Source: Planktothrix pseudagardhii
GTDB taxonomy: Bacteria > Cyanobacteriota > Cyanobacteriia > Cyanobacteriales > Microcoleaceae
Reading direction: 5' to 3'
DNA length: 64,000 nucleotides
NCBI RefSeq assembly: GCF_904830925.1
Contig: NZ_LR882967.1
Span: forward strand, 3,554,106 to 3,618,105
Position 1 is the first letter of the stretch. Every line of letters begins with the position of its first letter. The notes beneath the pieces were generated by a model. It did not search any database and was not told the DNA's origin. It saw only the letters and a program-made list of their open reading frames with translations. The position numbers were made by a program, and so were the translations under genes. This document shows, piece after piece, positions 1,626 to 49,305 of the stretch.

Positions 1626-2231
1626 ATGACTAAAGTTTTATCAAATTTTATCCAAATTAAAGAAGCAAAAATTCATTTCTTAGAAGTAGGAAACTCTCAA
1701 AATCCATCGGTTTTATTCCTTCATGGAGCCAGCTTTAAAGCGAAGACTTGGCAAGAGATTGGAACCCTAGAATTGATGGGTCAAAACCAATATCATGCTA
1801 TTGCTGTGGATCTCCCTGGATATGGCAAATCTCAATCCTTTAGCGGAAATCGAGTTGAGCTTTTATTAGAGCTCATTGATCATCTGAACTTATCAGGGTG
1901 CGTGTTAGTCTCTCCTTCGATGAGTGGGAATTATAGCTTACCCTTTATCGCTCAACATTCAGACCGCTTAGGAGGATTTGTCGCTGTTGCTCCCGTGGGT
2001 ATCCCTCAGATGGTAGAACATTTGCAAAGAATTTCACTGCCAACCTTAGCCATCTGGGGAAGTAATGATAGAATTGTTCCATTGGATCACGCAAAGTTAC
2101 TTCAACAATTCATGCCCAATGTACAAATTGTAATTTTAGAACAAGCCGGTCATGCTTGTTACATGAAAGCAACTCCTAAGTTTCATGAACATCTCATGGA
2201 ATTTGTGAACCGTATAAACTCTCATTCATAA
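1626..2231 (+). CDS. alpha/beta-fold hydrolase
   Basis: 201 aa. Contains the FLHGASFKAKTW oxyanion-region motif, a nucleophile-elbow-like SPSMSG, and a C-terminal GHACY carrying the triad His. Confidence 0.65.
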   Translation: MTKVLSNFIQIKEAKIHFLEVGNSQNPSVLFLHGASFKAKTWQEIGTLELMGQNQYHAIAVDLPGYGKSQSFSGNRVELLLELIDHLNLSGCVLVSPSMSGNYSLPFIAQHSDRLGGFVAVAPVGIPQMVEHLQRISLPTLAIWGSNDRIVPLDHAKLLQQFMPNVQIVILEQAGHACYMKATPKFHEHLMEFVNRINSHS

Positions 2232-2355
2232 CATTTTATTTATCCGTTTTTTTAGAGTTTATTATTTTCCTATTTTTTGCAATCGGATAAAATTATATCC
2301 TCAAGGTTAAATTCAACATTTTTTTCTTAATTACTCCTAGGATGATGATTAAAAG

Positions 2356-2913
2356 ATGACTCACAAAACAGAAAAAGCACTTTTTCTTTTAGGCGGACTC
2401 AGCGATGATGATCTAAGCTGGATTATCAATAAAGCAAAAATAGAAAAACTGCCCCCAGGCGAACGGTTAATTTATGAAGGACGCCCCATTAATGCCCTTT
2501 ATTTTGTATTGAGTGGATTGTTAACGGTGGTGATAGGATCGAAAGAAGATCGAGAATTAGCCCAAATTACGACAGGGGAAGTCGTTGGAGAAATTTCTTT
2601 TATCGATAGTCGCCCACCTTTAGCAACGGTTAAAGCCTTAGAAACCACTCAAGTTTTAGCTATTTCTCGTTTTGATCTCAATAGCAAACTTCACCATGAT
2701 TCTAAATTTGCTGCCCGATTTTATCATGGTTTATCCCTATGTTTAGCCAGTCGGATGCGAGGCACAATTCGACGTTTAGGTTATGATGATCTGACAGAAT
2801 ATGAAATAGATGTACTAGAACCTGAAGAATTTAGTGAACAGACCAAAGAATTTTTAGTTTTAGCTCAAGCTAAATTTAATTGGTTAGTTCAAAATCTTCG
2901 AGCTAGAGAATAA
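2356..2913 (+). CDS. cyclic-nucleotide-binding (CAP-effector) domain protein
   Basis: 185 aa. The cNMP-binding signature GEVVGEISFIDSRPPLATVKALE lies in a beta-roll context (LIYEGRPINALYFVLSGLL). Confidence 0.65.
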   Translation: MTHKTEKALFLLGGLSDDDLSWIINKAKIEKLPPGERLIYEGRPINALYFVLSGLLTVVIGSKEDRELAQITTGEVVGEISFIDSRPPLATVKALETTQVLAISRFDLNSKLHHDSKFAARFYHGLSLCLASRMRGTIRRLGYDDLTEYEIDVLEPEEFSEQTKEFLVLAQAKFNWLVQNLRARE

Positions 2914-2939
2914 AACATCAACTATTTTGAGAGTAGCAA

Positions 2940-3395
2940 CTAGGGGTCATCCTGGGTTGAACTAATCCACTTCCAAAAGGGATGAGTTGGCCCCTGTTTC
3001 AGAATTTTAAAGACTTGCTGTTCTAAACGGTGTTGATAGGCGGGAGAAACCCCGAATAAAATGTTGCGACTATGCCAGACTAACGTTGCTGTTGTCAGAC
3101 CTATACACAACCCCAACCCCAAAGCGGCAAAACGATTATAAGCTAAACCATAACGAACCGCCGACCAAGTAAAATGGTTTTGCCAAAGGGCAATTTCTCC
3201 GCGCAACGCCCACATACTTAAAGGCGCTACGGTAATCCACAAAATTCCAATGACTAACCATCGGGTGTAAACGGTGAGTCGATGCAATTTTTGCACTTGA
3301 GCATTAAACGTTGAATCATCTGGCGAAGGGTTTAATCCCATTTCGGCCTCCTGCTTTTTAACCCCTATCTGCTGTTGCATGAGGACTGTCCTCAT
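2940..3395 (-). CDS. hypothetical membrane protein
   Basis: 151-aa ORF with 3-4 hydrophobic helices and no recognisable motif. Confidence 0.35.
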   Translation of the reverse strand: MRTVLMQQQIGVKKQEAEMGLNPSPDDSTFNAQVQKLHRLTVYTRWLVIGILWITVAPLSMWALRGEIALWQNHFTWSAVRYGLAYNRFAALGLGLCIGLTTATLVWHSRNILFGVSPAYQHRLEQQVFKILKQGPTHPFWKWISSTQDDP

Positions 3396-8916: not shown

Positions 8917-10017
8917 ATGCCACCTCGCTTCATCAACGATCGCTATGCTCTATCCCCCAACCCACGATCAGGTGGAATGGCAGATGTCTACCGCGCAAGA
9001 GACTACAACCAAGAAGAACGGCTAGTTGTGGTAAAAGAATTCAAAAATGGACAAATTGAAGCAGATTTTCTAGCCGAATCCTTCAGACGTGAAACCCTAG
9101 CTCTCCAAGAGTTAAAACACCCTAGAATTGTGGAACTCCTTGATTCTGGAAAGGATGAAACTACGGGGAATTATTTTCTGGTTCTGGAGTGGATGGAGAA
9201 AGATTTAACAACACTTTTAAAAGAATCTCCCCCGGAAGATTGGGATTCATTTTGGAAAGCAATAGCCTTACCCACATTGGAAGCTTTAGCATTTTCCCAT
9301 AATCGCGGAATAATACACCGGGATATTAAACCTAGCAATATTTTAGTAGGAAGTGACGGTAAACTTAAACTTGCTGACTTTGGCATATCTAAGCTTAAAA
9401 GATATTTGGAACCCAATATTACACTCAAAGACTTTGTATCGCGTACATTCACGCCGCCAGAATTTGATGATGGTTCCTATACTTACACCCGCGATGTTTT
9501 CAGTTTTGGTGTATTGGTTTTGAAGTGTTTAACTAATATTGAACTAACAGAACATAATAATATTCCCAGCGCTCTAAAAGCGTTTAATGCACCCTCTGAA
9601 ATCGTAGAAGTAATCGAGCGTGCTGTTTCCTTAGACCCCGCAGAGCGTCAGCATAATGCAGATGTATTGTTAGCTGAAATTAATGCTATTCAAAGAAAGA
9701 CAAAAACAGGAGAAATTAAAAAACGTCCTTGCTTTATTGAGCTTACACCAAGGTGCTTAGAACGACTTAGGAATGAATTGAAGATTTCTTCAGAAGTTGA
9801 GATCAAGAATCTTATCCTTGAAGATATCAATAATGAATCTGGTTGTGGCATTCGTCCCTTTAAATTTAAGGACGACACCAACGATGCTGCGTCCCGTGAA
9901 GATCACTACGAAATTTATGGTATTTCCTATCGATATCATATAAAGATAGATCAAAACCAACGACAGCACCTATCCCTCTTCTGTCACTCTCCGAAATCAA
10001 CAAGTAATAAAAAGTAG
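8917..10017 (+). CDS. Ser/Thr protein kinase domain protein; the reading frame runs into the IS inverted repeat at 9970 (3'-disrupted, putative mkoA 5' part)
   Basis: Hanks-type kinase motifs: Gly-loop/Lys (GGMADVYRA..VVVKEF), catalytic loop IIHRDIKPSNIL, DFGISK, and the APE-like TPPEF. The last 16 codons (LSLFCHSPKSTSNKK*) are encoded by the IS terminal repeat. Confidence 0.8.
   Translation: MPPRFINDRYALSPNPRSGGMADVYRARDYNQEERLVVVKEFKNGQIEADFLAESFRRETLALQELKHPRIVELLDSGKDETTGNYFLVLEWMEKDLTTLLKESPPEDWDSFWKAIALPTLEALAFSHNRGIIHRDIKPSNILVGSDGKLKLADFGISKLKRYLEPNITLKDFVSRTFTPPEFDDGSYTYTRDVFSFGVLVLKCLTNIELTEHNNIPSALKAFNAPSEIVEVIERAVSLDPAERQHNADVLLAEINAIQRKTKTGEIKKRPCFIELTPRCLERLRNELKISSEVEIKNLILEDINNESGCGIRPFKFKDDTNDAASREDHYEIYGISYRYHIKIDQNQRQHLSLFCHSPKSTSNKK
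9970..9994. repeat. left terminal inverted repeat of the IS701-like element
   Basis: Matches the reverse complement of 13067-13091 at 24 of 25 positions. Confidence 0.7.
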
Positions 10018-10019
10018 AG

Positions 10020-11255
10020 TTATCCATTGGGAAAATAAGATTGAAATTGATTAATATTCTCAATTAATTTATGAAAACCCACTAATAAATGGCGGTCGGG
10101 AAAAATATCTAGCCACGGGACAATCAACCACAATATAATAGTAGGCTGAATTATTAAACGCAGATTATTTAAAACATTTTTCCATCCCTCTTTGTGATTC
10201 CATTGTTGATGAGTTGAGCAATCGGTGGTGTTTTTTTTGCTCTCAGATTCTCGGGGACTGCCTTGACTTAAAGACCGGAAAACTTCGGAGTTGAAACTAA
10301 TCATTAAATACACACAGAAAATGATTTCCCACCATTTTTCTATATCGGGAAAATCCGTCAACCGATAATCAGTCCAACCCAGTTCTTGTTTACATTGTCG
10401 AAATCCATATTCCACCCATGTTCTTAACCCGTATAAATTACCTAATGTCTTTTTCATCTGGCTTCTCTTCTCTGTTAAATTTGTCATGACAAACGAAGTT
10501 GATGTTTCTGGCATCGTTTCTGGATCTGTGGTAATTTCCCAATAGGTTCTTGTACTTCTTTTCCCAAATATGATTTCTCTAATATATCTGGTTTCTGATT
10601 CTTGATTGCTAAAAATCCTCTCAAATTTACACCATTTGTTGGCTCTAACTTTCTGCTCGCTTGACATCCAGACTCCATGATTACTTCTTATTGCTAGTAC
10701 CCAAGGAATTTGAAATTGATCTAATGTACTGATAAACGAACTACTTTCACCATAAAGGCTATCTGCTAATACCAATTCAATCTGAAATCCCCAATCAACC
10801 AATTCTGTTAGAATTTCTGATGCGATTTCAATCTTAGTTTTGTAGACATCTCCTTCTTTTAATGTTCCTTTGGGTTTAAATACTCTAAACACTAAAGGAA
10901 AGGTTATATTTTTATAAACACCGTAAGCATTAACTGATACTATTCCCCGATCTGTTTTGCCCACACTTCCCAAGTATTGTCTAGCTATATAGTCGGTTTT
11001 TTTTCCCTTTCTCCTATCTCCTGTCTCATCAATTATTACTATAATCTTCTCTCCTTTCAATGCTTTTAGAGTTCGGGCTAATCTTCTTTCCTTTAATTCC
11101 CTTGCTGACCAAGGCGAATTGGCTAAGAAATGATGCAGTGATTGTGGCGACCTAATTCCTACTATTTTAGCAATTTCCGGTAAAGATTTTCTCGGAATTG
11201 GTGAGATAATTCCTAGATGTAAGTAGGGCTTGCTGAAAAAGTAACAGAAAAGCAA
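10020..11255 (-). CDS. IS701/IS4-type DDE transposase, C-terminal about 400 aa (N-terminus severed by the nested IS)
   Basis: The block LGIISPIPRKSLPEIAKIVGIRSPQSLHHFLANSPWS is typical of IS701-family transposases. A DDE-type core follows (IIVIIDETGDRRKG ... VLADSLYG). Confidence 0.7.
   Translation of the reverse strand: MLFCYFFSKPYLHLGIISPIPRKSLPEIAKIVGIRSPQSLHHFLANSPWSARELKERRLARTLKALKGEKIIVIIDETGDRRKGKKTDYIARQYLGSVGKTDRGIVSVNAYGVYKNITFPLVFRVFKPKGTLKEGDVYKTKIEIASEILTELVDWGFQIELVLADSLYGESSSFISTLDQFQIPWVLAIRSNHGVWMSSEQKVRANKWCKFERIFSNQESETRYIREIIFGKRSTRTYWEITTDPETMPETSTSFVMTNLTEKRSQMKKTLGNLYGLRTWVEYGFRQCKQELGWTDYRLTDFPDIEKWWEIIFCVYLMISFNSEVFRSLSQGSPRESESKKNTTDCSTHQQWNHKEGWKNVLNNLRLIIQPTIILWLIVPWLDIFPDRHLLVGFHKLIENINQFQSYFPNG
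11234..11250. repeat. terminal inverted repeat of the inner IS
   Basis: TAGGGCTTGCTGAAAAA; its reverse complement occurs at 12865-12881. Confidence 0.7.
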
Positions 11256-11267
11256 AAGAATGATTAA

Positions 11268-12770
11268 CTAGCAAATGGAGTCAGAAGGATAAATAAGTTT
11301 TTTTTGAGATAAGGAGTTAACAGATAAATTCTGGTAATCAATAACTCGAAAAAAGTAATTGAACAAAAAAATTGACCTAAAAATCCGTCTAAGAATCACA
11401 GAGAGATTCATGACTAAAAAAGTAATAGCAATTGCTGTTTCGGAAGTATGAGCTAGTTTATTCATAATCCGATTCAGGCTAAATCTTCTTTTCCCTTGGC
11501 CAAATTTCCCCTCAATGGAATTCCGAATTTTTTCATCCTCTAACGCCTGTTTCTTAGTAGCTTTACTAAGATTTGCTGACGGTCTCCCTAATGGGAGGCC
11601 ACTGATTCTAATTCCTCTGTCTTTACACCAAGCTCGGTTGTCTCTAGTCCGGTAAATTTTATCTACATGGACTGATTCAGGATAATGCCCCGTGTATTCT
11701 TTAAAAGCCTCTATTTGTGTTTTTAAATCACAGGATTCGTTAAAATTATCCCAACTAATCCGGTCAAGAAATACATATTCATCCAGACAACTCGCAGACA
11801 ATTTAGCACCAAATTCTACTGACGTTCCGGCTTTACCTCGCACAATCGGACGAATATGAGGTTGGCTCAAACTGACGATTCTATCGGAAATGCTCTGTTT
11901 GTTATTCTCATACATCCATTGCTGTTGACGGTAAACTTCTGATATTACTAATAAACTCTTATATTGCTTGTTATTTAAGCAATCTAGCGTTGCTCCATTG
12001 TCGATGAGTTGGTCTATATGTCCTAAGTTTCGTTTAATATATTGCAGTTGTTTTTTAACTGCTTTTCGTCTTTTTTGTCGGGAAGGTCGGCGTTGTTTGG
12101 CTACTTCTAGGTAGTCTTTTCTGGCTGTTTTTCGATAAGTTCTTGGTTTCTTTTCTGATTTATCCTGACGACTTTTATGCAAACTATCAATGATTTTTTC
12201 TGTCTGTTCTCTGGCTTTATTTAAAATTTTTAAGTCTGTTGGATATGTGATATCCGCAGGTGCACAAGTCGCATCAGCTATTAATTTTCCTCGGTTTTTC
12301 CTCTCACTTCCCTCTTCAGCTTCTGATTGATTTTCTGAGGCTGGCTCGGAACTCGCCTCTCGCATTCTTTTGACCATTAACCGATTAACTTTATTCACTA
12401 AATTTACATTGATTCTCGTCCGAAAGTGCACTAACATTGAGGCATCAAATGGAGCTTCGTTCCTGTATTCTGACAACCCGATAAAATACTGCAAGTAGGG
12501 ATTTTCTTTGATTTGTTCTACTGTTTCTCGGTCGCTTATCCCTAATTTTTCTTTAATGATTAAGGCTCCTAATGCCATTCTAAATGTTTTGGCGGGTGCT
12601 CCCATCACAGATGAGAATAATTCTGCATATTCCACTTCAAATTCTTCCCACGGTATCCATTGAGCCATGATTACCCAGCGATTCTCTTCTGAGAGTTTTC
12701 CCTCAAATGGCAGTTTGAACTCTTCGGGTGGTGTTTTCTGTTGTTCGTCTTTACGGTACATTTTCCCCAA
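11268..12770 (-). CDS. DDE transposase, IS5/IS1182-like (InsH-N/DUF772-type N-terminal domain)
   Basis: 500 aa. The N-terminal block FKLPFEGKLSEENRWVIMAQWIPWEEFEVEYAELF...TFRMALGALIIKEKLGISDRE is typical of IS5/IS1182 transposase N-termini. A basic KRR-rich linker and a C-terminal DDE region follow. Confidence 0.75.
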   Translation of the reverse strand: MGKMYRKDEQQKTPPEEFKLPFEGKLSEENRWVIMAQWIPWEEFEVEYAELFSSVMGAPAKTFRMALGALIIKEKLGISDRETVEQIKENPYLQYFIGLSEYRNEAPFDASMLVHFRTRINVNLVNKVNRLMVKRMREASSEPASENQSEAEEGSERKNRGKLIADATCAPADITYPTDLKILNKAREQTEKIIDSLHKSRQDKSEKKPRTYRKTARKDYLEVAKQRRPSRQKRRKAVKKQLQYIKRNLGHIDQLIDNGATLDCLNNKQYKSLLVISEVYRQQQWMYENNKQSISDRIVSLSQPHIRPIVRGKAGTSVEFGAKLSASCLDEYVFLDRISWDNFNESCDLKTQIEAFKEYTGHYPESVHVDKIYRTRDNRAWCKDRGIRISGLPLGRPSANLSKATKKQALEDEKIRNSIEGKFGQGKRRFSLNRIMNKLAHTSETAIAITFLVMNLSVILRRIFRSIFLFNYFFRVIDYQNLSVNSLSQKKLIYPSDSIC

Positions 12771-12864
12771 CTCCTGCCAGGTTTTTGCGCTATTTTACAC
12801 CCATCCCTTGCACCTGATTCATTTTTTCTTGTCTTCTCCTCCCGCCTGTTCTGGCTTTTCGCCT

Positions 12865-12881
12865 TTTTTCAGCAAGCCCTA
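12865..12881. repeat. terminal inverted repeat of the inner IS
   Basis: TTTTTCAGCAAGCCCTA, the reverse complement of 11234-11250. Confidence 0.7.
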
Positions 12882-12884
12882 AGT

Positions 12885-13014
12885 ATTTAAAACATTCGTA
12901 ACTTCTCACTTCTGGGAATAGGTCTTTATAACCTTGACAATATTCATCAATCACTGAAACTGTTGGTTGTGCATCTCGGGCTAAATGTTTGAGCATCTGT
13001 AATTCTACATCCAT
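12885..13014 (-). pseudogene. N-terminal 43 codons of the IS701-like transposase, separated from the rest by the nested IS
   Basis: MDVELQMLKHLARDAQPTVSVIDEYCQGYKDLFPEVRSYECFKY continues, after removal of 11234-12881 (and 2 bp), into LHLGIISPIPRKS at 11230. Confidence 0.6.
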
Positions 13015-13066
13015 TACCCTATCCCCCTTCTAGCTACCCATCTGGTTTATTTTCTAATTTTACTCC

Positions 13067-13091
13067 TCGGAGACTGACAGAAGAGGGATAG
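13067..13091. repeat. right terminal inverted repeat of the IS701-like element
   Basis: Reverse complement of 9970-9994 with one mismatch. Confidence 0.7.
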
Positions 13092-13096
13092 TTATT

Positions 13097-15487
13097 TTGA
13101 ATGCTTGGTCTACTTCTTACTGGCAATTAGAACAACGTCGAGAACGTTCTTGGATTCTTCCCTACGAGTTCAGATTTGGAAAGCCACGTAATTTATATGA
13201 AGCAGAAGATGTAATTCGGGATTTAGAGGATGCAGTTATAGAGCATGAAGATAACTTAAAAGAACAGGAAGATGAGAAAGAAAAGCAACGAATATTTCAA
13301 GTTTGGTGGGATATTCTTAGAGCGAAGGGTGATTGGGAAAAAAATAGAGAGAAACCGATTAAATACGAAGGCTGTACTCGTGATGGAAACCGCGTTACCT
13401 TTGAATTATCAGAACTTCCAGAAGATGATTTAGCTGGACAACCACGCCATGTGACAAACCCCAAAGGAATTAGCATCTTGGGGGGAGATATTGAGCAAGT
13501 TATCGGTGACAAATTGACTCTTTATATTAAATATGGAGAATCAGAAAGACTCCCACAATCTGGAGAATTACGTTTTGATACTCGTGCTGCTGAAGTTGCC
13601 CTAAATCGACAAAAAAATGCCCTGGATGCGATTAGATTTGATAGGGGAGTCCGTTCAGATATTCGCCAATTACTTGTCAATCCCCAAGAAGTTCGTATTC
13701 CTGATTTAGAAGTTGATTTACAATTTATTCAATCTCTGAATGAATCACAGGAACAAGTTGTCAAAGCGGCACTTTCTACAGAAGATTTTCTAATTGTTCA
13801 AGGGCCACCAGGAACAGGAAAGACAACATTTATTACAGAAGTTGTTCTGCAAATTCTTAATCAAAAACCTGAGACTAGAATTTTGCTGAGTTCACAAACT
13901 CATGTTGCACTAGATAACGCCTTAGAACGAATTAAAGCTAAAGATCCTCACTTAAAATTGTTGCGAATTGGCAACCATGAAAGGGTATCAGAAAATGTTC
14001 ATTCTCTGTTACTGGAAGAACAAATGGAACAATGGAGAGAGTCGGCGATCGCTAAAGGACAGGAATTTATTGATAATTGGTCAGCACAACGAGGTATTTC
14101 TGGGCATAACAGTGAAATAGCCACACTATTTCAAGAAATGAGAAATCTGGGAATAAAAATTGAAACTTTCAGGGAAGAAGTTAATGCCTGGAAACAGGAT
14201 TTAGATGAAATTCTAGCAATAAATTACGACATAGAAAATCCAGATTCATTGTTAGAAACTCATATTCCCAAAGATAAGCTAGAGGAATGTCAAAGTATTG
14301 AAGTGGAAATTAACATTCTACGTCAGCAGTTAAAAGAAGCACGACAGCAACAGAAAGAAAAAGCCAAGCGCTTAAAAGAATTAACTAGAAGTAGTATCAA
14401 TCAACTTTTGAGATTATCGGTTGAGGAGATACAAGAACAGATTAATCAACTCATTGATCAAAATAATTCAGATTCAAAAATGCTACAAAACTTGCTAAAA
14501 ATTCAAACAGAATGGTTTGAGCAGTTTGGTCGAAATGACAAATTCAATATACCTTTAATTAAGCGATCGCAAGTAATAGCTGGGACTTGTATCGGAATTC
14601 CTAGAGAGATTCAAGACATAGAATTTGACCTGTGTATTGTTGATGAAGCTTCAAAAGCTACGGCGACAGAAGTATTAGTTCCAATGGCGCGATCGCATCG
14701 CTGGATATTGGTTGGCGACCCTAAACAACTGCCACCCTTTAAAGATGAAGTTAGCAGAAATTCTGACTTTTTAGACGAATACGAACTGACTCAGGATGAT
14801 ATTCGAGAAACCCTATTTGATCGACTACTTAGGACACTCCCAGATGGGTGTCACAAGATGTTAACAATTCAACATCGGATGGTTGCACCAATTGGTGATC
14901 TGGTCAGTGAATGCTTTTATGAGGGTCAGCTAAAAAGTGCCAGGACTGATATCGATAAAGACCTGGCTAAAATATTACTAAAACCCGTTACTTGGTTAAC
15001 CACAACAAAACTTAAAAATTATCGTGAACAGTCTGTCAATTCTAGCTTTAACAATACCTGTGAAGTAAAAGTCATTGTTGAGTTTCTCAAGCAGCTAAAT
15101 CAAATAGCAGTACAAGCTGAAAAAAAATACAGCGTCGCTGTTTTAACCGGGTATGCAGCACAGCTAAAATTACTTAATCGTAGCCTTAATTCAGAATTAA
15201 AAAATTGGCAAGCATTAACAGTTGAGTGTAATACAGTAGATGCCTTCCAAGGACGCGAAGCTGATATTGCCGTGTATTCTGTAACTCGTTCTAACAGACA
15301 AGGTAAAGTGGGTTTTCTGCGTGATGCAGAACGATTAAATGTGGCTTTATCCAGAGGTAAAGTGGGTTTAGTAATTGTGGGAGATCATTACTTCTGTCGA
15401 ACTTCACAGGAGAATCCATTACACCGAGTTTTGGATTATATTGAACGTCACACTGAAAATTGCGCTTTAACCGAGCCTGGGTTATAA
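13097..15487 (+). CDS. Upf1/DNA2-like SF1 helicase (COG1112-type), 5'-truncated by the IS (putative mkoA 3' part)
   Basis: Walker A LIVQGPPGTGKTTF, Walker B/DEAS-type box LCIVDEASKA, and motifs VGDPKQLPP, TIQHRMVAPIG and AFQGREADIAVYS...LNVALSRGK, as in AAA_11/AAA_12 helicases. The first in-frame ATG is more than 300 codons in. The frame is open back to a TAA inside the IS repeat. Confidence 0.8.
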   Translation: MNAWSTSYWQLEQRRERSWILPYEFRFGKPRNLYEAEDVIRDLEDAVIEHEDNLKEQEDEKEKQRIFQVWWDILRAKGDWEKNREKPIKYEGCTRDGNRVTFELSELPEDDLAGQPRHVTNPKGISILGGDIEQVIGDKLTLYIKYGESERLPQSGELRFDTRAAEVALNRQKNALDAIRFDRGVRSDIRQLLVNPQEVRIPDLEVDLQFIQSLNESQEQVVKAALSTEDFLIVQGPPGTGKTTFITEVVLQILNQKPETRILLSSQTHVALDNALERIKAKDPHLKLLRIGNHERVSENVHSLLLEEQMEQWRESAIAKGQEFIDNWSAQRGISGHNSEIATLFQEMRNLGIKIETFREEVNAWKQDLDEILAINYDIENPDSLLETHIPKDKLEECQSIEVEINILRQQLKEARQQQKEKAKRLKELTRSSINQLLRLSVEEIQEQINQLIDQNNSDSKMLQNLLKIQTEWFEQFGRNDKFNIPLIKRSQVIAGTCIGIPREIQDIEFDLCIVDEASKATATEVLVPMARSHRWILVGDPKQLPPFKDEVSRNSDFLDEYELTQDDIRETLFDRLLRTLPDGCHKMLTIQHRMVAPIGDLVSECFYEGQLKSARTDIDKDLAKILLKPVTWLTTTKLKNYREQSVNSSFNNTCEVKVIVEFLKQLNQIAVQAEKKYSVAVLTGYAAQLKLLNRSLNSELKNWQALTVECNTVDAFQGREADIAVYSVTRSNRQGKVGFLRDAERLNVALSRGKVGLVIVGDHYFCRTSQENPLHRVLDYIERHTENCALTEPGL

Positions 15488-15569: not shown

Positions 15570-15779
15570 ATGAATAGCCACAAAGTAACATTAGAAATTT
15601 CGGAAACCCTTTTTGAGCAACTCTCTTTACTAGCTGACCTAAAAGAAGAATCAATAGAATATTTAGCAATTGAAATTATTGCTGCTAAATTACCTGGTTT
15701 AATTCAAAGAGAGAGTCAATTGAAGCAATTATTAGAAGCAATCAAACCTGATAGCATTCATAGTGAAATTGGGTTATAA
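15570..15779 (+). CDS. putative antitoxin (MazE/ribbon-helix-helix-like) of a MazF pair
   Basis: 69-aa acidic ORF ending 6 bp upstream of the MazF-like gene. Assigned on position and size only. Confidence 0.45.
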   Translation: MNSHKVTLEISETLFEQLSLLADLKEESIEYLAIEIIAAKLPGLIQRESQLKQLLEAIKPDSIHSEIGL

Positions 15780-15785
15780 TAATAT

Positions 15786-16148
15786 ATGAATTCTGATAAT
15801 CCTCAGTTGTATATTCCTCGTCAAGGTGATATCATTTGGATTGACTTTATTCCGCAAATCGGCAGAGAACAGGCAGGTCGTCGTCCAGCTATTGTTATCT
15901 CAAAAACAACATATAATCGCCGAGTTGGACTAGCTTTAGTCTGTCCAATTACTAGCCGAGTAAAAGGTTATCCTTTTGAAGTAGCAATTCCAGAAGGATT
16001 AGCAGTATCAGGAGTTGTTTTAGCCGATCAAATTAAATCCTTTGATTGGCAAGCAAGGCAAGCAGAGTTTGCTTGTAAAATGCCTCCAGAAGTCCTAATT
16101 GAAGTAGTTGCTAAATTAATGAACCTATTACCCGAAATAGAGATTTAG
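15786..16148 (+). CDS. mazF: MazF/PemK-family endoribonuclease toxin
   Basis: 120 aa. GDIIWIDFIPQIGREQAGRRPAIVIS ... LALVCPITSRVKGYPFEV ... VVLADQIKSFDWQARQA matches the PemK/MazF signature. Confidence 0.8.
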   Translation: MNSDNPQLYIPRQGDIIWIDFIPQIGREQAGRRPAIVISKTTYNRRVGLALVCPITSRVKGYPFEVAIPEGLAVSGVVLADQIKSFDWQARQAEFACKMPPEVLIEVVAKLMNLLPEIEI

Positions 16149-16158
16149 TTAAATAAAT

Positions 16159-17700
16159 ATGAAGTTAGAAAATCTCGATTTTTCTCCAGAAGAACTGCGT
16201 CGCTACAATAATCGTACAGGCTTCGATTTAGTGAGTTGTAAACAAGTCGGTTTACCTGTTTATAAAATTACTGTTCAAGCTCTAACTCAACTGCATAAAC
16301 CAATTCCACCAATAGAAGAATATGTCTTGAAATCGATTAATGCTGGTTTATCCTCTGAAACGGATATTGCTGGATTTCTTGGCATTGAATTGCCTATTGT
16401 CAGGGATGCAATGATCAATTTAAGGATGAGTGAGGATATAGACCTCATAGCTCCTGATGGCTCTCAGATACAGGTTTGGAAGTTGACGAAAAAAGGTGAA
16501 GGAACACTCCGCGAGGCTAAAATTATTGTTCCAGAAGAGCGAACATTTGATATCAATTTTGATGGACTTTTACGGTATCCTCGTTGGTACGGAAAGTTAG
16601 AGTCACGTTTACTTAAGCAAAAAGATTTGCGTGATCAAGACATTATAGAAATTGACCCCTTTCCGAAAAAGTCACCAGAAATTTCCGATCTTAAACTCAA
16701 AGATGTAGACAAAATTATTCGCCAGATTGATGGAGCCAGCAAAGCCAGAGTTAAGCAAGAGCGAGACCTTTTAGCCTTGAAAGCTATTGAGCGCAGGTCG
16801 ATATTTTTTCAACCGGCTTTGATGCTAATTTATAAGGCGAAAGATAGTGATAATATTCAGGTATCTTTTGCGATTGATGATGTTATTTCTAATGATCATG
16901 AAGAAATTTTTGATCGTACTAATGGAATCAAAAAACTTCAGATATTAGAAAACCTAAAAGAGAGCGCACCCCGAAAGTTAGCTGAAGCAGTTTTAGGATA
17001 TGAATTTGTTGCTCAAGCTCCTTTACAAGAAATTGAAGCGATTAAGGAAAAAGTTTTTGCTGCTCAAGCTCAAATAGAAGAAAAAATACAAACAACTCAA
17101 AATACTCTTGAACAAACTGAAGATGATCAGGAAAAACTCATTCTTGATCAAAAGCTTCAAGAAGCACAACAGCAAATAAAAGAACTTCAAGCTCAACTTG
17201 ATTCTATTCTAGCTTCAGTTCCGATGCGATGGCTAGAAATGTACGAACACCGTCCTATCCTCGAACAAGCACTTAAAGAGAGTCAAAAACGTTTAATGAT
17301 TATCTCTCCTTGGATTCGAGCAAGTTCTGTGGATAAAAAGTTTATTCAACAGTTTGAAAATCTTCTCAAACGGGGAGTACAAGTTTTGATTGGGTACGGT
17401 TTAGGAGAAAACGATGATAAAAATTCAAAATCTGATATTCAAGCTGAGAAAAATCTTGAAAAATTAGCAAATCAGTACCAAGGTAATTTTATCCTTAAAC
17501 GTCTTGGAGATACCCACGCAAAAATCCTCATATCTGATGGAAAATTTGCTGTTACAACAAGTTTTAATTGGCTTTCTTTTAAGGGCGATCGCGATCGCAC
17601 CTTTCGAGATGAACGGGGAACACTTGTATCTGACCCCCAAAAAATTGATGAACTTTTTGATAGCTATAGATCTCGAATAATTAATACAAAATCTACTTGA
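16159..17700 (+). CDS. PLD-superfamily (single HKD) nuclease-domain protein with a long N-terminal region and central coiled coil (putative mkoB)
   Basis: The C-terminal domain LMIISPWIRASSVDKKFIQQFENLLKRGVQVLIGYG ... GDTHAKILISDGKFAVTTSFNWLS carries one HxK(x4)D motif, as in Nuc/Zucchini-type PLD nucleases. The N-terminal roughly 330 aa show no motif I recognise. Confidence 0.7.
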   Translation: MKLENLDFSPEELRRYNNRTGFDLVSCKQVGLPVYKITVQALTQLHKPIPPIEEYVLKSINAGLSSETDIAGFLGIELPIVRDAMINLRMSEDIDLIAPDGSQIQVWKLTKKGEGTLREAKIIVPEERTFDINFDGLLRYPRWYGKLESRLLKQKDLRDQDIIEIDPFPKKSPEISDLKLKDVDKIIRQIDGASKARVKQERDLLALKAIERRSIFFQPALMLIYKAKDSDNIQVSFAIDDVISNDHEEIFDRTNGIKKLQILENLKESAPRKLAEAVLGYEFVAQAPLQEIEAIKEKVFAAQAQIEEKIQTTQNTLEQTEDDQEKLILDQKLQEAQQQIKELQAQLDSILASVPMRWLEMYEHRPILEQALKESQKRLMIISPWIRASSVDKKFIQQFENLLKRGVQVLIGYGLGENDDKNSKSDIQAEKNLEKLANQYQGNFILKRLGDTHAKILISDGKFAVTTSFNWLSFKGDRDRTFRDERGTLVSDPQKIDELFDSYRSRIINTKST

Positions 17701-21877: not shown

Positions 21878-23236
21878 ATGGAACTTGATTTATCTCGCTT
21901 TTTTAAAGCTTCTAATCCGGCTGAAACCCTCGATGTTGAACGTCCAGAAGATCAAAAATATTATATTGATTTTTCTCCAGCACGAGGCGGTAAGTGCATG
22001 GAACAAATTGCACGAACAATTACGCGGTTATCCCCTGATCGCCCCACCTGCCAACTGTTTACCGGGCCAGTAGGTTCAGGGAAATCAACGGAATTATTGA
22101 GGTTGAAAGCTCAACTCCAAAAAGAAGGATTCCATGTCGTTTATTTTGAATCGAGTAAAGATTTAGATATGGGGGATGTGGATATTACCGATATTTTATT
22201 AGCGATCGCTCGTCAAGTGAGTGAAAGTATTGAAAGCTTGAAAATTAAATTACAACCGAAAGGATTTAAAAGTTTATTAAGTGGAGTCATTAATGTTTTA
22301 AATACAGAAATTGACTTAAAAGCAGATATTAACGTCCCCGGTCTGGGAACATTGGCTGCTAACACAGAAGGAGAATTTTCCCTCTCTACAGGGATTGGAA
22401 ATATTACGGCTAAGACGAAAGATAGTCGAGATTTACGGTCTTTATTACGTCAATATTTAGAACCCCGAACCAATAATATTTTAGAGGCTATCAATAAAGA
22501 ATTATTGGAACCTTCCATCCAACAATTAAAACAGATGGGAAAACAAGGTTTAGTGGTGATTATTGATAATTTAGATCGGATTAGTTATAGCCCCAATAGT
22601 ACGGGAAGATTTCAACCCGAATATTTATTTATTGATCGCGGTGAACAACTCAATAAACTCAATTGTCATGTAGTTTATACCATTCCTTTAGGTTTGATTT
22701 TTTCTAATGATTTAGGACAACTGATGAATCGTTTTGGGAATGACCCAAAAACCTTACCGATGGTGACGGTAAAATTTGAAGATGGCGCACCTTGTCAAGA
22801 GGGAATTGAATTGTTAAGACAAATGGTAATGGCAAGAGCATTTCCAGGTCTGGCTGCGAAAGATTATCCAGCTTTAATTGATACAATTTTTGATAGTCCT
22901 GAAACCTTAGATCGTCTTTGTACCATTAGTGGCGGTCATGTTCGGAGTTTATTAATTTTGTTATATAGCTGTTTACAAAAAGAAGATCCCCCTTTAACAA
23001 GAGAATCCTTAGAAGAGGTAATTCTACAACGTCGTCATCAATTAACCTTAGCCATTGAAGCTGAAGAATGGCAAATGTTACGCCAAGTAGCAGCGACTAA
23101 AAAGTTGAGTGGTCAAATTGAATATCAAACCCTAATCAGAAGTTTATGGGTTTTTGAATATAATCATGCTCAACATTTTTGGTATGATATTAACCCGATA
23201 TTGACGGAAGCTAAGGAGTTTGGATTAGGCATTTAG
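21878..23236 (+). CDS. P-loop NTPase (AAA-like ATPase), function unknown
   Basis: 452 aa with Walker A LFTGPVGSGKSTEL and Walker B LVVIIDNLDRI. It has no partner genes. Confidence 0.55.
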   Translation: MELDLSRFFKASNPAETLDVERPEDQKYYIDFSPARGGKCMEQIARTITRLSPDRPTCQLFTGPVGSGKSTELLRLKAQLQKEGFHVVYFESSKDLDMGDVDITDILLAIARQVSESIESLKIKLQPKGFKSLLSGVINVLNTEIDLKADINVPGLGTLAANTEGEFSLSTGIGNITAKTKDSRDLRSLLRQYLEPRTNNILEAINKELLEPSIQQLKQMGKQGLVVIIDNLDRISYSPNSTGRFQPEYLFIDRGEQLNKLNCHVVYTIPLGLIFSNDLGQLMNRFGNDPKTLPMVTVKFEDGAPCQEGIELLRQMVMARAFPGLAAKDYPALIDTIFDSPETLDRLCTISGGHVRSLLILLYSCLQKEDPPLTRESLEEVILQRRHQLTLAIEAEEWQMLRQVAATKKLSGQIEYQTLIRSLWVFEYNHAQHFWYDINPILTEAKEFGLGI

Positions 23237-43956: not shown

Positions 43957-45444
43957 ATGAGTAAAGCATCAAAGTATTGGACACTGGTTAAACTCGAAAG
44001 TTCTGGCCGACAAAAACGGTCGGAAATAGCAGCAGCCAAAGCCTTTTTTGAGAGGGCTTTTCCAGAATTCCTCGCAGAGGCGGATGTTCCCGATGTACCC
44101 ATTCAGAAGCAATTAGTACAATGGCTTCGTGATGGCAATTCTCAAGGGAATAATATCAATAGCCAAAATGCAGAATGTTGTCTTTTATGCTTTATTTCTT
44201 GGGAAATTGAACAGGTTTGTCTTCAGTTAGCTCAACAATTTGGAACCTATCATGGTTTTAGAAGCCAAGACTTATTCCCCTTTGTTTTGGATGAAGAAGG
44301 AATTAATCGTCAGCGCCATTTAGGACAAACAAAAACTTCTTATCAATCCTTTGCACGGGAAATTTTACAAACCTTTGATCCCCAGCAAAGTAGTTTAGCA
44401 ACTTGGACAAACCGACGAGTTAAATTTAATAGTGAAATCAATAAGTTTTTACTAGAGCATGGGGTGTATCTCGTGAGTGATTGGGCAATTTTAAATGATA
44501 CCCATCCTCAACAACTGGAAAAAATTTTAACCCAGTTTTATCAATTAACGTCCCTGGAAGTTGAACAACGATTACAGCTTTTAGCTTGCTACCATAGCGT
44601 TTACCGTAGCCAACGTTTACAACAACGTCAAGCCGGAGCTAGAAAACGCTGTCAACCGCCAACGGCTCAACAATATCAACAAATTGCTCAACGGTTAGAA
44701 ACCTTAATTCAACAGAGGATTTCTCCTAAAGCCGTCGCCCTGAAATTACAAAATCTAGCGACTCTATTACGCCAATATCGCACCTATATTCGAGGAGGAA
44801 AGTTACCCAACCAATCCTTAATTTTTGTTGATGATTCTGATTCCATCATTGAACAAATTCCTAGCCCTGAACCCCTAGAAAACGATGAGGAACAAATCAA
44901 AAAACAGGAGTTTTTAAACTGGTATGAAAAACAGTTTTTGATGTGTTTACATAGCAGTATTGCTCAAGTTTTAGAAACCTGGTTAACAACTTGCCAAAAG
45001 CGAGACGGAGAAAAAGCGGAACAATTTTTAACCGCCCTTTATCTGTTTCATTGTCAGGGTCAATCTATGAGCGAAATTGCAGCTACATTAGGATTAAAAG
45101 CTCAGTATCAAGTAACTCGTTTATTAAAGCTTAAAGCCTTTCGCGCTGATGTCAGACATCACTTATTATTTCAGTTACGCGATCGCATTTTAGAGTATGC
45201 CAAACCTGAGCATCTTTCCCAAGAGTTAGAACAGTGGGAAAAACAAATTGAATTAGCCTTAGATGGAGAATTGGAAACCTTGTTTAAACAAGCTGAATCT
45301 GATTCCTATATTGCTCAAAATCGTCCCCTAAATAGTCCCTTTTTTAAAGGCGTTTGCTACTATTTAGATTTAAGAGAAAAAAGTCCAGAATTGATTCATT
45401 CCATGATTTCTTTATTATCTAAAAATTCCCGACGGAGCTATTAA
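43957..45444 (+). CDS. hypothetical protein with a sigma-70 region-4-like HTH near the C-terminus
   Basis: 495 aa. The segment LYLFHCQGQSMSEIAATLGLKAQYQVTRLLKLKAF resembles an ECF sigma region-4 HTH. It ends 3 bp before the next ORF. Confidence 0.45.
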   Translation: MSKASKYWTLVKLESSGRQKRSEIAAAKAFFERAFPEFLAEADVPDVPIQKQLVQWLRDGNSQGNNINSQNAECCLLCFISWEIEQVCLQLAQQFGTYHGFRSQDLFPFVLDEEGINRQRHLGQTKTSYQSFAREILQTFDPQQSSLATWTNRRVKFNSEINKFLLEHGVYLVSDWAILNDTHPQQLEKILTQFYQLTSLEVEQRLQLLACYHSVYRSQRLQQRQAGARKRCQPPTAQQYQQIAQRLETLIQQRISPKAVALKLQNLATLLRQYRTYIRGGKLPNQSLIFVDDSDSIIEQIPSPEPLENDEEQIKKQEFLNWYEKQFLMCLHSSIAQVLETWLTTCQKRDGEKAEQFLTALYLFHCQGQSMSEIAATLGLKAQYQVTRLLKLKAFRADVRHHLLFQLRDRILEYAKPEHLSQELEQWEKQIELALDGELETLFKQAESDSYIAQNRPLNSPFFKGVCYYLDLREKSPELIHSMISLLSKNSRRSY

Positions 45445-45446
45445 TA

Positions 45447-46817
45447 ATGTTTACTTCTTTCTTAGATGAATCAGAGGTTTTGTTTGAGTTTGAACCGCTT
45501 AATCCTGAAGCTTTACCTTTATCTTCTGAACAAATTAATCAATCCTTAGATTATTGTCGTTCTATTCTCGATGATCGAAAACAATGGCAAACCTATCTCA
45601 ATTCTCTAGCTTTCTTTGGGTTTCAAAATTGGTTAGAACAGCGTTCATCAGAACTTGTCTTCAATTTAGATCATCCTTCTTTAGAAAAACCTGAATTAGC
45701 TTATTTTATTGAAGCCGTTTGTAACTTAGCCGTCAATCAATTTAAAATCTGCTTAGTCGCCTTGGGAAATTCTAGGACGGATACTATTATTTTACCTAGG
45801 GCTATATTTGAATTACCGGAATATAGGGCTCATTATTATATTTTAATTGAGGTTCAAGAAGAATTAGAAACAACTTCAATTTATGGGTTTATTTCCTATT
45901 CAGATTTTCAAGCCCATAAAACACAGATTGATTTAGAACCCAAAGCAGATTGGACATATTCTGTCCCCTTATCTTGGTTTAACACAGAACCCGATCAATT
46001 TTTATTATTTGTACGCTGTTTAGAAGTTTCTGCAATTCCTTTACCGGAAATTCAGAATCCTGCAATACTATTATCTCAAATTCGAGAAGAATTAATTAGC
46101 AAACTTTCTCAACTGCAATCCTCAGAACCTGGTAGTTTTCATGAATTGTGGCAAATTTTAACTTGGGAACAGGGAAAGATTATTTTCAGTTATCCTGAAT
46201 TACTGCGATGGATTTATGAAGTACAAAACCAAGCCATTTTATCGGCACAACCGATTTCTCAATTCCATAAAAATCCTATTGCTTATTTAACAGATTTATT
46301 CAATTTATTAACACAACCGACGCTAAATTTAGCGGGATGGTTTAACCAGGAATTAGACATAATATCAACAGCTTTATCCTGGGTTTTTATTCCAGATTTT
46401 TCTCCAGAAACCGCCTTGCGTGACGGAACTGAAATTTCCAGTTTAGTCAAACAACTCCAAGAAAATGGGGTCGAAATTTCTCCCCAAGCCAAAGGTGCTT
46501 ATCGAGATTTAGGTTTAGGAGGACGTTCTCTGCGGTTATATGCTTTAACTTGGCCGTTAGAATGGGAAATTGAACCCGAATGGACGCTATTATTAATATT
46601 AGGTTTAACTACAGGAACGGATTTACCAGTGGGTGTGAAATTACGAGTCAGTGACGCCACCGGAATTTTAGTTGAACAAGATTCAAATCGCGAAGATCAG
46701 TGTTCTTATTTATTTACTCGTGTGGTCGGAACCTGTCAAGAAAAATTTGTGGTGACGGTGAGTTTAAGGGAAGATATAACAGAAACATTACCGCCTTTTG
46801 AATTTAGTTTCAATTAA
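45447..46817 (+). CDS. hypothetical protein (cyanobacterial DUF1822-like size and composition; unverified)
   Basis: 456 aa with no motif recognised. Tightly coupled to both flanking genes by a 3-bp gap upstream and a 20-bp overlap downstream. Confidence 0.45.
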   Translation: MFTSFLDESEVLFEFEPLNPEALPLSSEQINQSLDYCRSILDDRKQWQTYLNSLAFFGFQNWLEQRSSELVFNLDHPSLEKPELAYFIEAVCNLAVNQFKICLVALGNSRTDTIILPRAIFELPEYRAHYYILIEVQEELETTSIYGFISYSDFQAHKTQIDLEPKADWTYSVPLSWFNTEPDQFLLFVRCLEVSAIPLPEIQNPAILLSQIREELISKLSQLQSSEPGSFHELWQILTWEQGKIIFSYPELLRWIYEVQNQAILSAQPISQFHKNPIAYLTDLFNLLTQPTLNLAGWFNQELDIISTALSWVFIPDFSPETALRDGTEISSLVKQLQENGVEISPQAKGAYRDLGLGGRSLRLYALTWPLEWEIEPEWTLLLILGLTTGTDLPVGVKLRVSDATGILVEQDSNREDQCSYLFTRVVGTCQEKFVVTVSLREDITETLPPFEFSFN

Positions 46818-49305
46818 GATTCAAAACCTAAATATGAATGCCATTGTTTCCCCTTTTTATCTCAAAGTTCAACGAGTTGAGCAGGTTTGCTTATTTCAAT
46901 TATCTTGGGGGGAAGGGCAAAATTTGGGAGTCACGCTTCCCTATCCTGAACGATTAACTCAACTGTATCAAGAGTGGCAATATATTTATTTGAGTTTTTA
47001 TCAGAAAGCACTGCGAGGTCGAGTGGAAGCGACCGGAAAACTTACCCAAAGCCAAACAGATTGGCACGCTAAATTAGTTCAAGCAGAAGCAAAATTATTA
47101 TATGAATTTCATCGCTGGTTAAGACATGAAGAATTATATGAAATTCGAGCAACTCTGGCTAAAGCGACATCAAAGCAGAATTTAGAAACTTTACCGCGTG
47201 GCGTTGGATTAGATATTGATGTGTTTCTCACCACTGACCCGATAGATGTGGCTCGACTTCCTTGGGAAGCGTGGGAAATTGGTACAGAATTTGCGGCGAC
47301 TGGAAAAATTAGAATTGTTCGTCAACCGATTAATATTCGTCAGGTTACAACGACTCCCGAACATCGACCAACCCGCAATAAAGTTAGGGTATTAGTAATT
47401 TTAGGAGATGAAACGGGGTTAAATTTTCAAGCTGATCAAGAAGCGGTGCGAGCGCTCGCTCCAATTGCAGAAATTCAGTTTGTCGGTTGGCAACCTCAAC
47501 AAACTGTAATGGAAGTTAAACTTGCAGTGGTTAAAGCCATTCAAGATCAAAAAGGTTGGGATATTTTACTATTTGCTGGTCATAGTAATGAAACGGAATT
47601 AACCGGAGGAGAATTAGGGATTGCGCCCTCAGTTTCGTTGTCCTTATCCGAACTGATTCAACCCTTAACTGTTGCAAAACAACGAGGCTTACAATTTGCC
47701 TTATTTAATTCTTGTAATGGTTTAAGTTTAGCGAATACCTTGATTGATTTAGGATTAAATCAAGTGGCGATTATGCGAGAACCTATCCATAATCAAGTGG
47801 CTCAAGAATTTTTATTACGGTTTATTCGGAGCTTAACGGAATATTATGATGTCCATGATGCCTTATTATCCGCTTGTCAATTCCTCAAATTAGAAAAACA
47901 TTTAACTTATCCCAGTGCCTATTTAATTCCTTCCTTATTCCGCCATCCCAAAGCTCCTCCGTTTAAATTACAAGCCTTCAGTTGGAAACAACGATTAAAA
48001 CGATGGTTCCCCACAAAAAAAGAACTCCTTGCCCTAACAACCTTATGCGTTATCGCTTGGCAAACGCCTATTCAAAATTTTTTATTAGAACGACGAATTT
48101 TGATTCAAGCAATTTATCGAAATTTAACTCATCAAATTCCAACTCAATCCTCTCCCCCAATTCTACTAATTTTAATTGATGAAAAATCTATTCTAAAAGC
48201 TAAAATTTCTAATCCAAGACCGATGGATCGAAGTTATTTAGCTGAGATTATTAATCATTTAATTAAACTCAATATGCAAGTAATTGGCATTGATTATTTA
48301 TTAGATCGTCATCAACCTCAAAACGATCCCATCTTATCCCAATCTTTACAAAATGCAGTTCAAAATCATCAAACTTGGTTAATATTTGGAACGAGTAAAA
48401 ATCCCACCGGAGGATGGTTTGAAACCTTACCCGAATTAGCGAGTCCTAATTGGAGCTTACAAGGCGATTTAAGAATATTAGGTTATCCTCCCCTCTATAC
48501 CACCTTACTGCCTCTTCCTGACTCTCGACAACAACCTTTACCCTTCGCTTATTTATTGGCTTTAGCGTATCAATTAAACTTTCAAGAACGAGAATCTACC
48601 CCTGCCCCTCAACTGGACTCATCCGTTGATTGGCTATCCCATTTAAAAGCCTATTTAATTGATAATACCGGAACAGATTATCAAAGGTTATTTTCATCAA
48701 AAGCACGTTTACAACCGATCACAAATTGGGCATATTTATTAAAGCAATGGTGGTTTCATCCCCTGATTGATTTTTCAATTCCCCCAAAACAAGTTTATCA
48801 AAGTCTTCCCGCTTGGCAATTATTTGAGTCTCCAGAGTCTACCTTGAAACTTTCTACTCCCTTTGTCGTTCTAATTGCACCAGGGGGATATGGTGAAGCC
48901 GGAATTGCAACAGAAGGTCAAGATAATTTTCCTTTACCTATGGCATTAAATTATTGGTATTCTCAGGAAACACCACGCAATTATCGCCAAGTCTTACCGG
49001 GAGGTGAAGTTCATGCTTACATGACTCATCACTTTATTCAGCAACGATTTGTGATTCCCATTCCTGACCTTTTGCTGATTTTAATTGCCGCTTTATTCGG
49101 AAAAGGAGCGACCTTATCCTTAGCAACAGTTCGTCCTCAAAAAATAAAGTATATCCTGGTGTTTGTGGGATTAACAGGAATATATGGATTAGTGAGTGTA
49201 CAGGTTTATATTACAGGCGAACTTTTGCTTCCTTGGGTGTTACCAGCCTTGATGTTTTGGATGTATATTTTTCTGACATTTGTGGAAAGGAAATTTTATG
49301 GCTAA
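46798..49305 (+). CDS. CHAT (caspase-like protease) domain - CHASE2 sensor domain membrane protein
   Basis: 835 aa. CHAT catalytic dyad contexts ILLFAGHSNE (His) and ALFNSCNGLSL (Cys). These are followed by a CHASE2-like region (ILLILIDEKS...VIGIDYLLDRHQP) and C-terminal TM helices. Confidence 0.7.
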   Translation: MNLVSIKIQNLNMNAIVSPFYLKVQRVEQVCLFQLSWGEGQNLGVTLPYPERLTQLYQEWQYIYLSFYQKALRGRVEATGKLTQSQTDWHAKLVQAEAKLLYEFHRWLRHEELYEIRATLAKATSKQNLETLPRGVGLDIDVFLTTDPIDVARLPWEAWEIGTEFAATGKIRIVRQPINIRQVTTTPEHRPTRNKVRVLVILGDETGLNFQADQEAVRALAPIAEIQFVGWQPQQTVMEVKLAVVKAIQDQKGWDILLFAGHSNETELTGGELGIAPSVSLSLSELIQPLTVAKQRGLQFALFNSCNGLSLANTLIDLGLNQVAIMREPIHNQVAQEFLLRFIRSLTEYYDVHDALLSACQFLKLEKHLTYPSAYLIPSLFRHPKAPPFKLQAFSWKQRLKRWFPTKKELLALTTLCVIAWQTPIQNFLLERRILIQAIYRNLTHQIPTQSSPPILLILIDEKSILKAKISNPRPMDRSYLAEIINHLIKLNMQVIGIDYLLDRHQPQNDPILSQSLQNAVQNHQTWLIFGTSKNPTGGWFETLPELASPNWSLQGDLRILGYPPLYTTLLPLPDSRQQPLPFAYLLALAYQLNFQERESTPAPQLDSSVDWLSHLKAYLIDNTGTDYQRLFSSKARLQPITNWAYLLKQWWFHPLIDFSIPPKQVYQSLPAWQLFESPESTLKLSTPFVVLIAPGGYGEAGIATEGQDNFPLPMALNYWYSQETPRNYRQVLPGGEVHAYMTHHFIQQRFVIPIPDLLLILIAALFGKGATLSLATVRPQKIKYILVFVGLTGIYGLVSVQVYITGELLLPWVLPALMFWMYIFLTFVERKFYG

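Follow-up and report, generated by a model that had tools for sequence, protein, structure and literature searches.

Do the two open reading frames (ORFs) on either side of an insertion sequence (IS) in Planktothrix pseudagardhii represent two genes, or one gene that the IS has cut? The question arises in a 64,000-nt stretch of contig NZ_LR882967.1 (positions 3,554,106 to 3,618,105), which we call the window and number from its first letter. There a Ser/Thr kinase ORF runs into the left end of the IS and a helicase ORF emerges from its right end. The original prediction, made from the window alone, held that a fused kinase-helicase ancestor was likely but could not be proved there; sequences from outside the window, both homologues and uninterrupted sites, now show it. 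We conclude that the two ORFs are almost certainly parts of one gene, mkoA of a type I Mokosh defence system, split by the IS.

The homologues were found with a query in which kinase residues 1–351 were joined to the helicase ORF, searched against a collection of 5.8 billion proteins. Among the best 120 matches, more than 100 were single proteins of about 1141–1188 amino acids (aa) with 100% query coverage, each containing Pkinase, AAA_11 and AAA_12 domains, and none was divided at the break point of the window. They come from Planktothrix, Microcoleus, Coleofasciculus, Nostoc, Roseofilum, Hormoscilla and other cyanobacteria. In the best match (P0001 of Planktothrix sp. FACHB-1365, 1150 aa, 93% identity) the chain reads ...IDQNQRQH-LVI-LNAWSTSY through the junction (...YHIKIDQNQRQH-LVI-LNAWSTSY). 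Alignment to intact homologues, the check proposed with the original prediction, thus places kinase and helicase in one protein that crosses the junction; a kinase stop, an intergenic gap or a helicase N-terminal segment of the kind expected of two separate genes was found in none of them. These alignments show that mkoA normally encodes a single chain of 1150 aa, in which a Ser/Thr kinase at the N-terminus and a Upf1-like superfamily 1 (SF1) helicase at the C-terminus enclose a conserved middle domain. The genomic contexts agree: kinase and helicase formed one gene, followed by a gene for a phospholipase D (PLD) family protein, in 8/8 genus-level contexts inspected.

Uninterrupted syntenic genes were located in P. 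tepida PCC 9214 (locus L122) and in FACHB-1365 (locus L001). Synteny with the window extends over a GH116 glycosidase gene, a gene of about 130 aa (129 aa), the 1150-aa gene, a 69-aa gene, a PemK toxin gene and the PLD gene; L122 runs on into polA as the window does, and L001 stops within the PLD gene. The empty site is the same in both relatives, CAGCAC CTAG TTATTTTGAAT (CAGCAC-CTAG-TTATTTTG), with a single TA; in a longer read of L001 and L122 it is ...CAACGACAGCAC CTAG TTATTTTGAATGC..., and the site in its form without the IS spans CAGCACCTAGTTATT. At the same place the window has ...CAGCAC CTA/TCCC...GGGA/TAG TTATTTTG, slashes marking the IS ends. Deleting 9973–13090 (3118 nt) restores CTAG exactly and yields an ORF of 1150 aa; its alignments to the two intact proteins are gapless, with identities of 1109/1150 (96.4%) to P. 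tepida and 1069/1150 (93%) to FACHB-1365. The DNA around the reconstructed junction is identical to that of P. tepida at 597/604 nt.

These comparisons also set the reading frames of the window in order. The kinase frame does lack a stop before the IS, as had been noted (the ORF reads 8917–10017, 366 aa), and its stop does come from the IS. The accompanying count of 16 codons was one too high, there being 15 sense codons and the stop to the right of 9970 (LSLFCHSPKSTSNKK and the stop). Nor does this tail lie wholly in the left repeat: only its first 25 nt belong to the terminal repeat, and its first codon, CTA for Leu352, is identical to the native one, being composed in the window of the native C and the left TA copy. 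The IS-encoded tail occurs in none of the intact homologues. On the other side, the helicase frame is indeed open from the TAA at 13055–13057 through the IS end, its first in-frame ATG comes as late as codon 310, and the first candidate start is the TTG at 13097–13099, starting 6 nt beyond 13091; all three observations of the original prediction were borne out. Since intact homologues read H-LVI-LNAW across the junction, this TTG, the annotated start, is by alignment the native internal Leu355 codon. At the protein junction no more appears to be lost than the codon for Leu352 and one base, the first, of that for Val353. No frameshift or stop was found inside either mkoA fragment. The 5' part carries Pkinase at residues 18–233 (Pfam E 1.5e-35), with HRDIKPSN and DFG motifs, and the helicase ORF (13097–15487, 796 aa) carries AAA_11 (Pfam E 4.6e-46) and AAA_12 (4.9e-46), domains of Upf1/Dna2-type SF1 helicases, with Walker A GPPGTGKT, Walker B DEAS and QGRE all kept. 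The public annotation has two proteins, WP_254174081.1 (serine/threonine protein kinase; "PknB" in UniRef) and WP_254174082.1 (DEAD/DEAH box helicase; "Protein ZGRF1" in UniRef), which we infer should be one disrupted gene.

Where exactly does the IS begin and end? The original prediction put its limits at 9970–13091 and observed, correctly, that excising this span leaves the two frames 1 nt apart. Both limits overshoot by 3 nt. The IS proper occupies 9973–13088, and its terminal inverted repeats are 9973–9994 and 13067–13088 (22 nt, 21/22 matching). The apparent 25-nt repeats (9970–9994 and 13067–13091, 24/25 matching; the only two copies in the window, 0 expected by chance) consist of the 22 nt of the IS plus TA plus the outer C or G of the palindromic CTAG. 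Because the target is a palindrome, its outer C...G lengthens the apparent repeat, and this accounts for both the 3-nt overshoots and the 1-nt frame offset. A target duplication of 2 or 5 bp had been proposed, to be removed in addition; the 2-bp size was right, but restoring the frame takes a deletion 4 nt shorter (9973–13090), not a longer one.

The size of the duplication was taken from a comparison of IS ends. In a scan of GTDB genomes for the 22-nt terminus, at least 120 loci had an exact match to it; almost all of these were cyanobacterial, from many cyanobacterial genera, and 197 ends were compared. Among the loci listed, position -1 was A at 196 of these ends and position -2 was T at 192, and position -3 varied (A 91, T 66, C 22, G 18); TA stood on both sides of nine complete copies (1216–1456 bp), whose flanks matched no further. 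With TA alone constant and -3 variable, the IS is shown to duplicate TA, here the central TA of CTAG at mkoA codons 352/353. A 4-bp duplication of CTAG was rejected on the same grounds: only TA is constant at the 197 ends, and the complete copies lack a 4-bp flank match. A few contigs with the terminus carry the label Gracilibacteria or Terrimicrobiaceae, which may be due to mis-binning.

The gene so restored can be named. Type I Mokosh pairs one gene, which encodes both a COG1112/Upf1-like RNA helicase domain and a Ser/Thr kinase domain, with a second gene for a PLD nuclease (Millman et al. 2022, bioRxiv 10.1101/2022.05.11.491447), and mutating either the ATP-binding site of the helicase or the PLD active site abolishes the defence (bioRxiv 10.1101/2022.05.11.491447). 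The PADLOC MkoA model (PDLC03920, 1112 profile positions) matched the intact protein P0001 end to end (residues 4–1145 to profile positions 5–1107 of 1112, E 1.5e-272). Against the ORFs of the window the same model fell into two adjacent, non-overlapping matches, the kinase to positions 5–385 (E 4.8e-75) and the helicase to 394–1107 (E 5e-192). Downstream, the product of the intact PLD gene was matched by the MkoB model (PDLC03922) and has the HxKxxxxD motif as HAKILISD at residue 453. In the window mkoA and mkoB share a strand and are separated by 671 nt; P. tepida and FACHB-1365 have the same arrangement. The locus has a full-length MkoA profile, kinase and helicase in one gene, the ATP site and a separate MkoB; what it lacks is an uninterrupted mkoA, 3118 nt of IS DNA standing at codon 352/353, and it is therefore a disrupted member of type I Mokosh. 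It resembles the described type in its helicase gene with N-terminal Ser/Thr kinase, its separate downstream PLD gene and its strong MkoA and MkoB matches; it differs in the interruption and in the mazE-like/mazF pair that Planktothrix has between mkoA and mkoB. No phage-defence experiment on this cyanobacterial MkoA clade was found in the literature searched.

Two other relationships were compared. Type II Mokosh (e.g., E. coli YjhR) has the same helicase and PLD chemistry, and the PADLOC MkoC model gave partial matches to the helicase C-terminus and the PLD domain; however, type II is a single helicase-PLD chain with no kinase, whereas here the genes are separate and a kinase is present. A PDB sequence search with the helicase core found IGHMBP2 (E 2e-37), NAM7/Upf1 (E 1e-35 to 1e-29), Sen1 and Dna2. 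The likeness to the Upf1/IGHMBP2/Sen1 SF1B helicases is confined to the RecA core, at about residues 800–1140, and the MkoA kinase and middle domain have no counterpart there. That PDB search returned Upf1-like cores and kinases separately, and no solved MkoA-type structure.

What does the break do to the protein? In a 38-sequence alignment the residues that flank it include the invariant G335, Y338, Y340 and A357, and L352 and N356, each with a conservation of 90% or more. Residues 270–381 of P0001 form a compact alpha/beta unit in an AlphaFold2 model, with blocks of 10 residues mostly at 82–90 in predicted local distance difference test (pLDDT) score, and the insertion point is at the start of the strand 352–359. 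A consensus scan, a weak test, found no plus-strand promoter-like site in 10139–13514, and promoter-like matches in the region were fewer than in shuffled sequence. The scan, with the same limit on its power, accordingly gave no promoter pointing out of the right end of the IS that could drive the helicase fragment. Because the break falls in a conserved, confidently modelled beta-strand region and not in a domain linker, and because the 3' piece lacks a start of its own and a promoter-like site near the right IS end, we consider with good confidence that mkoA, and hence the Mokosh system, has most likely been inactivated.

Three other accounts of the locus have to be set against the reading of one gene, split and inactivated. 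If kinase and helicase had always been two neighbours, with the IS in or near the gap between them, the two proteins of the public annotation would be what they seem, and excision of 9970–13091 does give a kinase frame ending ...QRQHLF with a TGA that overlaps the TTG (TTGA), as in a coupled pair. The true empty site of the two relatives is CTAG, however, not this junction 4 nt shorter, and it reads H-L-V-I-L; the homologues that are single chains exceed 100; and the TA duplication puts the IS ends 3 nt inside the boundaries on which that excision was based. By these alignments an intergenic insertion is refuted, and we give it next to no chance. The translationally coupled pair implied by TTGA was rejected for the same reason, the empty site having four extra nucleotides and reading through. 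It is also very improbable, if a shade less so, that a repeat mis-assembly misplaced the nested pair of IS elements and that mkoA is intact in the organism. IS elements are the commonest source of mis-joins, but both junctions are base-exact with the TA duplication typical of the outer IS, the nested IS has a clean 6-bp duplication of its own, and the record is a 6.6-Mb contig in which a mis-join would not normally create matched duplications on both sides.

The last account accepts the split but not the loss: kinase and helicase proteins would both be made and cooperate with MkoB, the TTG at 13097 serving as the helicase start on transcripts that read through or arise in the IS, so that Mokosh would be at least partly active. 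Several observations weigh in this direction, or otherwise against our reading of the locus. Every catalytic motif listed above, from HRDIKPSN and DFG in the kinase to GPPGTGKT, DEAS and QGRE in the helicase, is kept in the fragments, and both mkoB and mazEF are intact. The sequence GAGGG stands 9 nt upstream of the TTG and might allow the helicase fragment to be translated. The ratio of nonsynonymous to synonymous substitution rates (dN/dS), from a three-taxon Nei-Gojobori estimate, is 0.20 on the window branch vs 0.27 for P. tepida and 0.17 for FACHB-1365, and lineage-specific amino-acid changes number 19 in the window vs 21 in P. tepida; such an unraised dN/dS fits a recent insertion, but it would also fit fragments still under selection. 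The AlphaFold2 model is mediocre overall (mean pLDDT 69, predicted template modelling score 0.33), and we used residues 270–381 only. Finally, the junctions in the window are those of the assembled sequence. On the other side, the break lies inside the beta-strand region and not in a linker; no plus-strand promoter-like site lies by the right IS end; the MkoA model spans the break, at which none of the best 120 homologues is divided; and in the protein collection the split form occurs only in this genome. A split but working mkoA therefore seems to us unlikely, and loss of function the better reading.

The insertion looks recent, the catalytic motifs being intact, dN/dS not raised and the fragments free of frameshifts and stops; in addition, in a collection of about 15 billion proteins the kinase ORF with its IS-encoded tail clusters with no other sequence. 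We infer that the insertion is recent, and all of these sequence features fit one that is also strain-specific. Relaxed selection on the lineage of the window was looked for and rejected, since the three-taxon estimate shows none, and decay can thus not be used as evidence for the age of the pseudogene. The comparisons show that a 1456-bp IS701-family element transposed into the CTAG of a single mkoA, duplicating TA. The gene was thereby cut into a 366-aa ORF (kinase, part of the middle domain and 14 IS residues) and a promoterless 3' piece. The transposase gene of the IS701 element in turn contains an IS5-family element, flanked by the 6-bp duplication TAAGTA. The features are collected in the table.

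Features of the disrupted mkoA locus and its two nested insertion sequences (window coordinates)
Feature	Position	Strand	Content or basis
mkoA 5' part, codons 1–352	8917..9972	+	kinase domain and first two thirds of conserved middle domain
Target duplication TA, left copy	9971..9972	.	single TA in L001 and L122 empty sites
IS701-family IS	9973..13088	- (transposase)	3116 bp now, 1456 bp without nested guest
IS-encoded tail of truncated kinase ORF	9973..10017	+	14 foreign codons SLFCHSPKSTSNKK and TAG stop (translation)
Outer transposase, C-terminal piece, codons 46–444 and stop	10020..11219	-	reconstruction; Pfam DDE_5 and DDE_Tnp_1
TAAGTA duplication, left copy	11220..11225	.	hexamer once in intact copy L026
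IS5-family IS	11226..12879	-	1654 bp; limits from alignment to intact outer-IS copies
TAAGTA duplication, right copy	12880..12885	.	alignment and sequence
Outer transposase, N-terminal piece, codons 1–45	12880..13014	-	reconstruction
Target duplication TA, right copy	13089..13090	.	empty sites and IS-end comparison
mkoA 3' part, codons 353–1150 and stop	13091..15487	+	rest of middle domain, coiled helical region, Upf1-like SF1 helicase
69-aa ORF, putative antitoxin (from position only)	15570..15779	+	same position in P. tepida and FACHB-1365
mazF (PemK-type endoribonuclease toxin)	15786..16148	+	Pfam PemK_toxin E 7.5e-27; NCBIfam MazF NF007386 126 bits, cut-off 120
mkoB, PLD-family nuclease, 513 aa, intact	16159..17700	+	MkoB E 2.2e-89; Pfam PLDc_2

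The outer IS was assigned to the IS701 family. With the nested IS removed, its transposase is one 444-aa ORF, which reaches 246.8 bits with the NCBIfam model of the IS701 family (NF033540, cut-off 150), and inverted repeats and a target duplication are present. Its NF033540 and DDE_5 matches, its 1456-bp length, its single transposase ORF and its 22-nt terminal inverted repeats are those of the family; the cyanobacterial group found here differs in its 2-bp TA duplication, and the copy in the window is disabled by its IS5-family guest. The family is listed in ISfinder with duplications of 4–5 bp. Intact 1456-bp copies (Planktothrix sp. PCC 11201; L026, L031) are 94–96% identical to that of the window. 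Aligned to them, the outer IS of the window splits into positions 1–1253 and 2908–3116 with a 6-bp overlap, which delimits the guest.

The nested element has perfect terminal inverted repeats of 15 nt (17 nt counting the flanking TA). Its 500-aa transposase (11268–12770, minus strand) scores 480 bits against NF033578 (IS5 family, cut-off 275) and matches Pfam DUF772 and DDE_Tnp_1_2, so that transposase score, inverted repeats and the hexamer duplication all agree with the IS5 family. It interrupts the outer transposase at codon 45/46, and the outer IS is therefore left with no complete transposase of its own. Since mobilisation of the outer IS in trans would still be possible, either insertion may have come first. 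The fused junction also creates a spurious 411-aa ORF (10020–11255), the first 10 codons of which come from the inner IS. No further copy of either IS was found in the window.

The event is ordinary pseudogenisation, by an IS, of a known defence gene, and it leaves the understanding of such systems unchanged. It is of use chiefly for annotation: a pair of RefSeq proteins from P. pseudagardhii are halves of one IS-disrupted mkoA, and the genome should be scored as having a disrupted type I Mokosh. It also offers a base-exact example of a defence gene apparently lost to an IS in a genus of bloom-forming cyanobacteria, of an IS701-family group that duplicates TA, and of one IS nested in another.

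Between the two Mokosh genes lies a putative toxin-antitoxin pair, the order in the window operon being mkoA, mazE-like gene, mazF, mkoB. The 69-aa ORF in the antitoxin position gave no family match in Pfam, PADLOC or NCBIfam profile searches. This gene and mazF stand between mkoA and mkoB in three Planktothrix genomes. In Microcoleus (two loci), Coleofasciculus, Roseofilum, Nostoc and a JGI metagenome contig mkoA and mkoB overlap or abut, and in Hormoscilla they are 250 nt apart. A PemK/MazF gene was seen beside mkoB in 3/8 genus-level contexts and in none of the other five, in a different arrangement each time: between mkoA and mkoB in Planktothrix, convergent and overlapping the mkoB 3' end in Nostoc, and about 330 nt downstream in Hormoscilla. 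The modules occupy 15570–16148 in the window, 11536–12114 in L001, 9536–10114 in L122, 10962–11634 in L125 and 11467–11863 in L127. The association is suggestive; it may be no more than chance could give in genomes rich in toxin-antitoxin genes, or it may reflect a functional link between RNase toxin and RNA helicase. These three arrangements directly beside mkoB are the basis for a further reading that we regard as a long shot: type I Mokosh of Planktothrix would be a four-gene unit in which MazF is coupled to the RNA-helicase/PLD pair, and the insertion, instead of being neutral decay, would recently have turned off a costly or self-toxic system, perhaps under selection.

Three minor observations concern the surroundings. 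On the downstream side, polA and a DnaJ-like gene separate the Mokosh locus from a 452-aa protein (21878–23236) that is 4 kb away; it has weak nSTAND_NTPase5/KAP_NTPase matches, as of a KAP/STAND-type P-loop NTPase, and might be of a defence type. Farther along, at 43957–50035, four same-strand ORFs with overlapping ends suggest an operon: a 495-aa protein (no Pfam match), a DUF1822 protein (45447–46817), an 835-aa CHASE2 protein (46798–49305) and a 251-aa protein (no match). In a metagenomic contig (L132), a group II intron-type reverse transcriptase with RVT_1 and GIIM domains (1895–3232) lies just upstream of an intact mkoA, a further case of a mobile element beside this defence locus.

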